From positions 45,756,001-45,820,000 of the forward strand of contig OZ024750.1 in the NCBI GenBank assembly GCA_964016885.1: DNA of 64,000 nucleotides, given 5' to 3'. The stretch is from Eledone cirrhosa. Taxonomy: Eukaryota. Positions 6,061 through 39,393 of the stretch are shown here, piece by piece. A model generated the notes under the pieces. It ran no database searches and was not told the DNA's origin. It worked only from the letters and a program-made list of their open reading frames with translations. Numbering within the stretch: the first letter of the stretch is position 1; each line of letters starts with the position of its first letter. A program made the translations under genes and the position numbers.

Positions 6061-6071
6061 ACTATGCATAG

Positions 6072-6582
6072 TAATTGTTTCTACGTTAGGCACAAGGCCA
6101 GCAATAACCGGTGTATTACTGGTACTTTATTTTATCGACCCCGTAAGGATGAAAGGCAAAGTTAACTATGCATAATAATTGTTTTTACTTTTGGCACAAG
6201 GTCAGCAATTACTCAGTACATTACTGGTACTTTATTTTATCGACCCCGTAAGGATGTAAGGCAAAGTTAACCTCGGCGGGATTTGAACTCAGACCATAAA
6301 GGTCCGTAACTCTTTGCTGCAAAGCATGGTGTCCGACCCTCTACCAATACTGCCAATATGGTTTCTACTATGGGCACAAAACCAGTAATCTTTTTTTGGG
6401 GGGGAAGGGGGTTCGATTAAATCGACTCCAGTGCGTGACTGGTACTAATTTTTTATCGACCACGTAAGGATGAAAGACAAAGTTAACGTCAGCGGGATTT
6501 GAACGCAGCACGTAAAGGGCCATAACTCTATGCTGCAAAGTATGGTGTCCGACCCTCTACCGATACGGCCAATCCACCGCCC
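6072..6582 (-). mobile_element. Tandem cluster of three tRNA-derived SINEs (Nin/Deu-type core)
   Basis: Copies ~6072-6168 (truncated), 6177-6356, 6358-6582. B-box GTTCAAATCCC; core gcctttcatccttacggggtcgataaaataaagtaccag. Core-domain name is from memory of invertebrate SINE superfamilies. Confidence 0.9.
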
Positions 6583-8192: not shown

Positions 8193-8880
<688 letters not shown>

Positions 8881-30283: not shown

Positions 30284-30769
30284 TCAGCGAGAATCGCATT
30301 TGGCGGGTAGAAAAAGCGAAACGAAACGCAAAAATCAGAAGTTATGCTTGTAAGCACTCTATAGTTAAAAAAGCAGAGCTAAACAATATGTTAAAACGCC
30401 ATACAAAACTGAAAAAAGTGGTCAAGAAAGCATCAACCACCTAAGCCAAAAAGCACATCAAGCTAAACAGGTCAAAACAAAATAAATGATAATAAACATA
30501 TATATATATATATATTTTTTAAATTTAACACGTATAAAATTTCTTTGGAGGACAGTCTCACAAAAGCAGATGTATTTATCTGAAACCTGCATGACCATAA
30601 TACTACTTACAATGTTATGTCCTGTAGTGTGTTCGATTATACCTTTTCAAAAAATAACCATAATATTATAAATGCGGCAAAAAAGGACAATATTGATTTA
30701 AAGAGAATATTTCTTGAAAACTACAAAATAAAATTATTTCAGTACATGCAAGCATCTCATTATTTCTAA

Positions 30770-31157
30770 GGGCGGTGGATTGGCAGTATTGGTAGTGGAT
30801 CGGACGCCATGCTTTGACGTATAGAATTACGGACCTTGCCATTCTGAGTTCAAATCCCGCCAAGGTTAACTTTGCCTTTCATCCTTACGGGGTCGATAAA
30901 ATAAAGTACCAGTAATGCACTGGGTAATTGCTGGCCTTGTGCCTAACGTAGAAACAATTATTTCTAAGGGCGGTGAATTGGCAGTACCGGTAGAGGGTTG
31001 GACGCCATGCTTTCTAGCATAGTTACGTCCTTTTACAGTCTGAGTTCAAATCCCGCCGAGGTTAACTTTGCCTTTCATCCTTACGGGGTCGATAAAATAA
31101 AGTACCAGTAATGCACTGGGTAATTGCTGGCCTTGTGCCTAAGGTAGAAACAATTAT
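30770..31157 (+). mobile_element. Two head-to-tail tRNA-derived SINEs
   Basis: 30770-30960 and 30968-31157; attatttcta present before, between and after. Confidence 0.92.
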
Positions 31158-31429
31158 TTCTATTTGTTATTTACGTTTCACAACAAAGCGATCAAAAGCT
31201 TACATATTATTTAAATTATATATATATACTTGCTGCGTTTAACCCATTTTTTTTTCTGTAAGAAAATGATGATTGATTTTAAATCAGTGATATAATTTAT
31301 TGAGAAAAATGCAGCATTTCAATATTACTCAATGAAAATTCAATGCATGAAAAATTGGAAAACATTATTTTTTGTAATATATCAAATCAAAATTACATTA
31401 TTAAACCTTATTCTTATTTTGTTTCTTGT

Positions 31430-34737: not shown

Positions 34738-35100
34738 GGGCGATGGATTGGCAGTATTGGTAGAGTCGGACGCCATGCTTTGCAGCATAGAGTTACGGCC
34801 CTTTATGATCTGAGTTCAAATCCCACCGAGGTTGACTTTGCCTTTCATCCCTTTGAGGTCGATTAAATAAAGTACCAGTCACGCACTGGGGTCGATTTAA
34901 TCTACTTTCCCCTTCCCCCACATTGCTGGTCTTGTGCCTATATAAGAAACCATTATTTAGATTTCGTCGGCCTTTGCCATTCTGAGTTCAAATCCCGCCG
35001 AGGTTAACTTTGCTTATCATCCTTACGGGGTCGATAATATAAAGAACCAGTAATGTACTGGAATATTTGGTGGCCTTGCGCCAAAAAGTGGAAACAATTA
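34738..35100 (+). mobile_element. Two tRNA-derived SINEs, second 5'-truncated and inserted at the first's 3' end
   Basis: 34738-34955 and 34969-35100; 20-bp TSD attatttagatttcgtcggc at 34952 and 35097. Confidence 0.9.
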
Positions 35101-35421: not shown

Positions 35422-35563
35422 GCAGAGGTTATATTTAATTTGTTGGGATTCGACAAGCTTAAACATGTTTATAACTGATATAAAGCACTCAACAGTTTAG
35501 TGGAGTAAATATTCAATATATCCTTTCCGGGTATGTCAATATTTATTTAATAAAATAAATCTG

Positions 35564-35629
35564 TATTTTATCTGATGAAAGAGCACCATAATTTGCCTTG
35601 GTTGCCCTTGAAATATATATAATAAAATA
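35564..35629 (+). ncRNA. Type-I hammerhead ribozyme (family C), within element 35421-35670
   Basis: UAUUUUAU-CUGAUGA-AAGaGCACCA(loop)UGGuUGCcCUU-GAAA-UAUAUA-UA-AUAAAAUA; perfect 8-bp stem I. Confidence 0.75.
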
Positions 35630-35663
35630 ATTATTGTTTTATAAATATAGTTTCCATTGATTA

Positions 35664-35734
<71 letters not shown>

Positions 35735-37450: not shown

Positions 37451-37506
<56 letters not shown>

Positions 37507-37510
<4 letters not shown>

Positions 37511-37991
37511 AAAGTTCTATTTAAAATTGTTGGGATACAACAAGTAAATATTTTTATAGCTGATATAAAGCACTCGACAAGTATTTGGAGTAGATATACG
37601 ATATTAATAAATGGAAACTATATTTATAAAACCATATTTATTTCATTATACATATTTCAGGGATACCAGATTATATTATGGTATGCCTTCATCAGACAAA
37701 ATACAATATATAACAGTTTTACAAATAGGTTTGACGTACCCTTTAAAATACAACCATTACTTTTGGAGGCTGCCTAATTGTAAAACTGTTATATATTGTA
37801 TTTTGTCTGATGAAGGCATACCATAATTTAATCTGGTATCCCTGAAATATGTATAATGAAATAAATATGGTTTTAAAAATATAGTTTCCAATTATTAATG
37901 TCGTATATCTACTCCAAAAATTTGTCGAGTGCTTTATATCAGCTATAAAAATATTTACTTGTTGTATCCCAACAATTTTAAATAGAACTTT

Positions 37992-37995
<4 letters not shown>
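37507..37995. mobile_element. Family C symmetric fold-back (223-bp arms, 43-bp spacer) with two HHRs
   Basis: Arms 37507-37729/37773-37995, TA-flanked on both sides. Confidence 0.9.
37801..37861 (+). ncRNA. Type-I hammerhead ribozyme (family C)
   Basis: UUUUGU-CUGAUGA-AGGcAUACCA(loop)UGGUAUcCCU-GAAA-U augu A-UA-AUGAAA; mirror on minus 37641-37701. Confidence 0.78.
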
Positions 37996-38025
<30 letters not shown>

Positions 38026-38261
38026 AGTATGATTTTGAAACAGCGAGCGAGTTTGAAATTAAAGGTAGAAGATTTCGAATGAAGAATTTTTTTAGCCTGA
38101 TAGTGGAATTTAGAACCATTTGACAAATGGAAATAGATAATTATTGACGTGCATGTGAGTCAAACCCACATCTATGGTTATCAAAACTGGCTCGCTGTTT
38201 AAAAAACATACCTGTGTTTATACTTGCTAAGAATGAAACTTCTAATTTGAATGGAGATTGG

Positions 38262-38429: not shown

Positions 38430-38489
<60 letters not shown>

Positions 38490-38568
38490 AGATGAGCGGA
38501 ACAAGCAAAATTCAAACAATATTGCAAAAAATTCAAAAAATAGAATTTAAATATTTATCTATCCATAT

Positions 38569-38649
38569 TGCTTTTACCGACGGTTTCACCTCACAAAATA
38601 TTGGAAATCCGATGGACATCCAATGGAAAGTTCGGCTCTTCAGAAAGCA
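38569..38649 (-). ncRNA. Type-I hammerhead ribozyme (family F, downstream copy)
   Basis: Minus: UGCUUU-CUGAAGA-GCC(...)GGU-GAAA-CCG u CGG-UA-AAAGCA. Confidence 0.8.
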
Positions 38650-39064
38650 TTTTCCCTTACATAGGACATATAGTCCCATAGCCGGCAAATATATTTCCTT
38701 CAGCCAGCTAGTGCAGGATCTAATGGGGCCATACATGTGACCTACACGTGAACTGGTCGATAGTAGAAGCGGGAGTAGCATAGACGTGTTATTTGCCACA
38801 CTACTAAAAATAGTAGCTAGGTATATAACGGATTTTTTCTCTACACATGAGAGAATATACATAAGATGAGATCAATATCCCCACAGCTACTAAGTGCACT
38901 CGGAAATATATAGGGTGTCTATGATAATATGATACAGTTTTTGTTCAATGGTATTAATTTGATATACCCGAACTGTAATATTGAGATGAGTGGAACAAGC
39001 AAAGTTCAAACAATATTTCAAAATATATAAAAAAATGTAATTTAAATATTTATCTATCCATATT

Positions 39065-39143
39065 GCTTTTACCGACGGTTTCGCCTCATAAAAGATTGGA
39101 AATCCGAGGGACTTCCAATGGAAAGTTCGGCTCTTCAGAAAGC
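39065..39143 (-). ncRNA. Type-I hammerhead ribozyme (family F, upstream copy)
   Basis: Minus: GCUUU-CUGAAGA-GCC(...)GGC-GAAA-CCG u CGG-UA-AAAGC. Confidence 0.82.
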
Positions 39144-39243
39144 CTTTTCCCTTACATAGGACATATAGTCCCATAGCCGGCAAATATATTGCCTTCAGCC
39201 AGCTAGTGCAGGATCGAATGGAGCCATAACTGTGAACTATATA

Positions 39244-39334
<91 letters not shown>

Positions 39335-39362
39335 GATGTACACATATATATATATCATATAC

Positions 39363-39393
<31 letters not shown>

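Follow-up and report, generated by a model that had tools for sequence, protein, structure and literature searches.

The window analysed here, a 64,000-nucleotide stretch of the Eledone cirrhosa assembly (contig OZ024750.1), is microsatellite-rich DNA from an assembly of 3.0 Gb and carries two hammerhead ribozyme motifs on its minus strand. A sequence-only reading of the window proposed that the pair would release a 495-nt monomer of a retrozyme-like circular RNA family. The locus raises two questions: what kind of element left these motifs, and by what route was it written into the genome? Our analysis suggests, with a probability of about 0.8, that the insertion derives from a non-LTR retrozyme, of which it comprises 1.5 units with a truncated 5' end, and that PLE enzymes, probably of the Neptune type, wrote it into (TA)n DNA.

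Results

Two type I hammerheads in an aged partial tandem

Pairwise alignment of the minus strand from 39237 to 38486 yields two direct repeats 495 nt apart, with 92% identity over 219 nt, and the insertion is laid out as a partial tandem of 170 + 495 + 90 nt, flanked on both sides by (TA)n (Table 1). The alignment bears out the reading of two minus-strand type I hammerheads at this distance, as both core motifs were located: CTGAAGA at 39138-39132 and 38643-38637, GAAAC at 39082 and 38587, and ACCGTCGGT at 39079-39071 and 38584-38576; a GUA triplet precedes each predicted cut. The pattern is not a chance one, because an exact 29-mer of the family (family A) spanning the cut has 59 matches in the genome and 0 in the reversed control.

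Table 1. Positions of the features discussed in the text, in window coordinates except in the last row
Feature	Position	Strand
Whole insertion, ~1.5 units of ~488-nt family A, 5'-truncated; stops at the first fixed 3' end	38486..39237	-
Hammerhead 1, type I; stem I GCUUU/AAAGC, CUGAAGA 39138-39132, long helix II, GAAA, stem III ACCGUCGGU; predicted cut after 39070	39065..39143	-
Hammerhead 2, type I, layout as hammerhead 1, G10.1-U11.1 wobble; predicted cut after 38575	38570..38648	-
Predicted monomer, cut to cut, 495 nt; 92% identity to the family consensus	38575..39069	-
3' extension beyond the second predicted cut; stops at fixed end 1 (about +91 to +97 after the cut)	38486..38574	-
Internal stretch separating the family's two fixed 3' ends (PLE-type "tail", about 110 nt)	38855..38980	-
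(TA)n flank, 5' side of the element	39238..39382	.
(TA)n target tract, 3' end of the element	38433..38485	.
Young autonomous PLE-like family	L141 1361-9480; G000:C3:66545360-66558488	-

The word "canonical", which the sequence-only reading applied to both motifs, was too strong. Measured against a type I hammerhead with a 6-bp helix I, a 4-bp helix II and a loop 1-loop 2 contact, the departure lies in helix II, which in both motifs is about 49 nt long and contains an internal loop; hammerhead 2 has G10.1-U11.1 where G-C is expected; and neither motif scored in Rfam at the gathering threshold. The lowest-energy fold of the window transcript (-202.7, vs. -181.0 for two monomeric ribozymes and -184.5 for the dimeric form) lies 18-22 kcal/mol below the ribozyme folds, i.e. 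it is a non-ribozyme fold, and the z score of the circular fold is -2.7 for the window copy vs. -6.4 for the family consensus. The divergence of the repeats of this copy is 7.0% and 9.4%. The window copy is an old, mutated insertion, likely weakly active or dead; the young sister families described below are the more promising candidates for activity, and the copy itself is of modest value.

Two other repeats of the window were recorded. A 258-nt inverted repeat (96%) sits in the (TA)n DNA adjoining the element, with partial copies upstream (37472-38030 and 35460-35677); it probably marks a further insertion, either two-armed or MITE-like. A short interspersed repeat that is abundant, which we take to be an octopus-type SINE, has copies at 30759-31162, 34796-35061 and 6061-6271.

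A dispersed, non-coding repeat family

A consensus built from 19 full units of family A is 488 nt long with 39% GC, and the mean pairwise identity of these units is 88%. The DNA search with family A gave 3,196 candidates, a number not to be equated with copy number, of which the best 40 were scored (identity 79-92%); a second search scored the best 150 of 5,690. A pattern of core plus stem III matched the genome 1,679 times and the control 0 times, and several further families are present among the matches listed (the first 100 of the 1,679), forming a superfamily with units of ~480-495 nt. Sister family B, which came to light as a chance neighbour of a PLE locus, has a 483-nt unit and copies that are 97-99% identical; an exact 28-mer of this family occurs 1,219 times in the genome. 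Family A loci hold at most 2 tandem hammerheads, family B loci up to 9, and sister arrays of at least 9 head-to-tail units occur among the matches listed. In sequence terms the repeat thus has the make-up of non-LTR retrozymes: at least two tandem type I hammerheads, a non-coding unit below 50% GC, and genomic monomers, dimers and multimers.

Several members of the superfamily deserve separate mention. The young families are B (L144 758-1461) and C (481-485 nt), found at loci L144, L191 and L177, and live circles are more likely to be found among them than for the window copy. A family C array at L176 has spacings of 485, 335 and 297 nt, i.e. internally deleted units within one insertion. The window itself holds a diverged, single-hammerhead member of the superfamily at 8323-8816 (minus strand), of family C type and about 70% like the unit, which ends at site 1 in (TA)n and whose stem III, ACTGATCAGT, is a compensated palindrome. 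One sequencing run of unknown kind, available as contigs, contains many diverged family copies; as it consists of contigs only, it has no bearing on RNA.

The expectation that the cut-to-cut unit would have no recognisable coding capacity held up. One frame stays open for 112 codons through the ribozyme, but shuffles match it with P=0.056 and it is absent from family B; a Pfam search of the unit returned no match, and no longer protein homologous to the frame was found (in itself weak evidence). A coding role for this frame was rejected on these grounds. A likeness of the peptide "KSVVYLA" to GIY-YIG domains was also dropped as unsupported. On the sequence evidence we treat the unit as non-coding.

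Covariation and conservation of the ribozyme

When 18 representative motifs were aligned, pairing held in 88.6% of cells, and both sides changed in 18 of the 25 pairs; covariation reaches 0.413 vs. 0.204 in shuffled alignments (0/500 shuffles attain the observed value), and slid controls lie far lower. Since the rows were picked with the core-motif pattern and are mutually related, the invariance of the core is there by construction, and only stems I and II and the centre of stem III are informative. Stems I and II covary across families. All ten rows with a two-letter centre of stem III read AU, CG or UA there, so that a perfect palindrome is kept; the other eight rows, family A included, have a single-letter centre. 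This self-complementarity in the sister families lends support to the earlier suggestion that the near-palindromic stem III suits a dimeric double-hammerhead fold; a palindromic helix III has been explained as a means for dimeric ribozymes to form, in a study that also reports PLE motifs to be of low activity (PMC4209133).

Among 109 family A-like copies, a set in which some loci were retrieved by patterns holding part of the core, 85 have the core intact, and substitutions amount to 2.2% in the core vs. 7.5% elsewhere. Taken together, the covarying stems and the conserved core imply selection on cleavage. The proposed retrozyme-like family is supported as a dispersed, non-coding, tandem hammerhead repeat with covarying stems. 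The stretch between the two fixed 3' ends (38855..38980 in the window copy) contains a conserved GUUC-UGG/CCA-GAAC hairpin with compensatory change in 0 of 7 pairs; a second hairpin in this tail is present in one alignment and absent from the other.

A PLE-type insertion footprint with two fixed 3' ends

Insertion ends were tabulated for family B and for an A set, defined as fragments whose likeness to the family A consensus is 76% or more, close sister subfamilies included. In the A set, two sites after the cut, +86-100 and +200-210, account for 108 of 135 3' ends, and (TA)n follows directly on 89 of the 108; in family B the corresponding positions are +76-84 or +184-195 (61 of 63 ends), with 60 of the 61 running directly into (TA)n. 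Most copies thus stop at one of two fixed 3' ends, which are spaced by about 110 nt; in the window copy it is the first. The 5' ends are scattered across the unit in both sets.

Head-to-head insertions use the two ends in a strict manner. In the A set, 23 of 33 such pairs are mixed, ten have at least one unclassifiable end and none has the same site twice; in family B, 20 of 21 are mixed and one is unclassifiable. All 43 classifiable pairs of the A set and family B thus have one fixed end per arm, which under independence has P of about 1e-7 for each of the two sets; queries stopping at site 1 bias one arm and leave the other unaffected.

PLEs are known for a tail of 30-40 bp, often at one end only, for inverted arms and for microsatellite targets (PMC8557442, PMC3846280), and the PAc PLE in vitro has two internal RT start sites, nicks AT-rich DNA and extends both strands (PMC11167929). 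Fixed internal 3' ends, a one-end tail, 5' truncation, an inverted arm and a microsatellite target are all found in the family. As one-end tails, inverted arms and two start sites are already in print for PLEs, we regard the footprint as the known PLE type with a longer tail. This Penelope-type footprint, which was absent from the sequence-only reading, is the main mechanistic clue to the element.

Circular or linear template

Units within one insertion resemble one another more closely than units of different insertions. Divergence of within-locus tandem pairs is 6.1% vs. 12.9% across loci in the A set (54 of 55 pairs below the cross-locus median) and 0.7% vs. 2.0% in family B (101 of 125 below the median), figures to be read with the reservation that within-locus pairs are not independent and that subfamily structure inflates the means; the inverted arms of one insertion show the likeness too (51 of 53 comparisons). 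Family B units of one insertion have subfamily and private variants in common, and among 120 family B junctions (overlapping loci may repeat a few) there are 0 indels at the cut site. The within-insertion likeness, the common variants and the exact junctions point to a single-unit bottleneck, as a circle or precise template jumps would give.

Our tentative proposal, which we put at rather less than even odds, is that the superfamily is the DNA record of a PLE RT dimer that primes from both nicked (TA)n strands, at two sites 110 nt apart, and rolls round one ribozyme-made circle. If this is true, each insertion would be a two-armed concatemer of a single unit, and the young families B and C would still be active in this way.

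It is possible, if somewhat doubtful, that the same PLE-mobilised, non-autonomous element uses an uncut, linear read-through transcript and no circle, with multimers arising by template jumps in the terminal redundancy and the ribozyme being only a passenger or an end-trimmer. Unprocessed RNA is the main substrate of PAc, ribozyme mutants still insert, and no reads ended at its cut site (PMC11167929); mobilisation therefore need not involve cleavage. In keeping with a linear template, upstream sequence is intact at 162 of 167 cut positions in our loci (about 75 of them inspected directly and the others deduced from lists of matches), near-identical tandems are also formed by the autonomous 4,286-nt element described below, and a family C array holds shortened units of 335 and 297 nt. 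The covariation of stems between families and the conservation of the core speak against an idle ribozyme, as do the exactness of the junctions at the cut and the private variants common to the units of one insertion, although precise jumps would be compatible with all of these observations.

Two further analyses address the RNA intermediate. A cut position coincides with a 5' end (0 to -3) in 5 of 167 cases, and positions -4 to -13 account for three; the excess is marginal (P=0.048; strict 0.07) and may be a weak hint of cut linear templates. A search for A-to-G editing scars gave no sense-strand excess among single-occurrence variants of families A and B (per base, A>G 0.29 vs. T>C 0.31 in A, and 0.07 vs. 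0.15 in B).

Resident PLEs and the partner element

A profile of the unit matched none of 50 GIY-YIG loci (drawn from 150 GIY-YIG matches), and at the loci examined no RT/GIY-YIG ORF is joined to the unit and no long frame continues past it. The sequence-only reading had named copies always attached to a PLE ORF, as ordinary pLTRs, as the outcome that would undo it; the loci examined do not show this arrangement.

The genome contains a young, autonomous PLE-like family with a 4,286-nt unit and a 1,278-codon frame with an Asn/Thr-rich insert. Many intact copies are 99% identical and occur in tandem and head-to-head; the element has its own minimal hammerhead and displays the two-end (TA)n footprint of the unit family, here at +164/+224. 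Its ORF is silent in Pfam and similar to a Pfam-confirmed RT/GIY-YIG ORF (E=1e-15); by its motifs, the element is probably of Neptune type. Some of the sampled GIY-YIG families have hammerheads with an ACCGGT-type stem III, and one (L333) has stem I ACCTT/AAGG in common with family B. The end spacings of the autonomous families sampled are about 35-65 nt (some read by eye) vs. 110 nt in the unit family, and neither the young element nor the sampled GIY-YIG loci have ends in common with the unit.

Other PLE material was observed in passing. RT/GIY-YIG families at L333, L225, L195-L223 and L230 have hammerheads that combine an ACCGGT stem III with a variant core, UUGA (U3 with A8); in one such family, also with an ACCGGT stem III, GCAA replaces GAAA. 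PLE fragments near L010, L012, L032 and L050 are separate insertions; that at L010 300-1512 (minus strand), PLE-like but of a different kind, has a 5' end that is palindromic and starts 9 nt after a family A cut site.

We consider it very unlikely that the units are ordinary 5'-truncated pLTR remnants of an autonomous PLE whose ORF-bearing copies went unsampled. pLTRs do have fixed ends, tails, inversions and hammerheads (PMC8557442, PMC3846280, PMC4209133), and only the best candidates of each search were scored; however, in the 19 full units the sequence after the cut runs 488 nt back into the next hammerhead, the listed sister arrays extend to at least 9 units, no long frame continues and there is no homology to the sampled PLE ends, so that the explanation is largely refuted. 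Still less credible is the idea that DNA-level recombination spread a satellite or minisatellite in which the ribozyme is a fossil. Tandem arrays are present, and gene conversion could produce within-locus likeness; however, copies are dispersed in (TA)n over many chromosomes, their 3' ends are fixed, their 5' ends are truncated and their arms pair strictly, all of which are marks of retrotransposition, and the likeness of inverted arms and the polarity of the ends argue against a satellite as well.

Discussion

The family, its covariation, its fixed ends, its target, the pairing of its arms and the likeness within insertions are established at the level of sequence; from them we infer cleavage, circularisation and the identity of the enzyme in a retrozyme cycle of the following kind. 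A tandem source would be transcribed, and its hammerheads would cut the transcript into ~488-nt units, probably as a dimeric ribozyme; these units may be ligated into circles. A PLE protein would nick (TA)n DNA and begin reverse transcription at an internal position of the RNA, either about 95 or about 208 nt past the cut; synthesis would then pass back over the cut junction and complete one or more rounds. The head-to-head copies would result when both nicked strands are used, each with one start site. In the literature consulted, PLE mobilisation of animal retrozymes, with a circular template, stands as a proposal (PMC7229834; 10.64898/2026.07.22.740005), and Li, Clavereau and Pollet 2026 (10.64898/2026.07.22.740005) obtained cleavage in only one of nine predicted dimers tested.

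The superfamily offers measurable footprints of retrozyme insertion: two start sites, the strict assignment of one site to each arm when copies are inverted, and the homogeneity expected of a single unit. Moreover, one genome holds both young, near-identical sister families and intact PLE ORFs, which makes the route testable.

Comparison with known systems

Three known classes were considered and rejected as homes for the insertion: an autonomous PLE (no ORF), a plant LTR retrozyme (type I motif) and a strictly canonical hammerhead element (long helix II). EN+ PLEs (Neptune type, PAc) nevertheless have much in common with the family, namely partial tandems, an inverted 5'-truncated arm, a one-end tail, two internal RT starts, AT-rich or (TA)n targets and a hammerhead with a palindromic helix III (PMC11167929, PMC8557442, PMC3846280, PMC4209133). 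They differ in having an RT/GIY-YIG ORF between pLTRs, whereas the unit here has neither an RT nor a GIY-YIG ORF, and the published PLE tail of 30-40 bp (PMC8557442, PMC3846280) compares with about 110 nt here.

Plant LTR retrozymes resemble the insertion in having a non-coding unit between direct repeats that each contain a hammerhead, and the monomer that they release between the hammerheads is predicted here (PMC7229834; 10.64898/2026.07.22.740005). Their motif, however, is of type III and lies in LTRs, whereas ours is of type I, with stem I as the open helix (PMC7229834; 10.64898/2026.07.22.740005). Unlike theirs, the repeats here are partial tandem units with variable 5' ends, and the plant marks (PBS, PPT and a 4-bp TSD) are not seen in the insertion or are unreadable inside (TA)n.

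The metazoan non-LTR retrozymes are the closest in kind (PMC7229834; 10.64898/2026.07.22.740005). They too consist of non-coding tandem units below 50% GC, with one type I hammerhead per unit, occur as monomers, dimers and multimers, and have no LTR-type arrangement. The length of our unit falls inside the 51-972 bp range of Li et al. (10.64898/2026.07.22.740005) and slightly exceeds the 150-450 bp given in PMC7229834. By those same two sources, helix II has 4 bp in metazoan retrozymes vs. about 49 nt here; retrozyme circles have been shown in coral, mussel and axolotl, whereas the family here is known from DNA alone; and Xenopus retrozymes have pLTR homology to a partner, of which none was found at our sampled loci. 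The two fixed internal ends, the (TA)n targeting and the paired arms of our family are features undescribed for retrozymes in the available text of PMC7229834 and 10.64898/2026.07.22.740005. Literature listings yielded neither a cephalopod retrozyme nor a report of this family, with the proviso that supplements could list such families. On the evidence of its sequence, the repeat is a new family among the animal non-LTR retrozymes, a kind of element that is itself already known.
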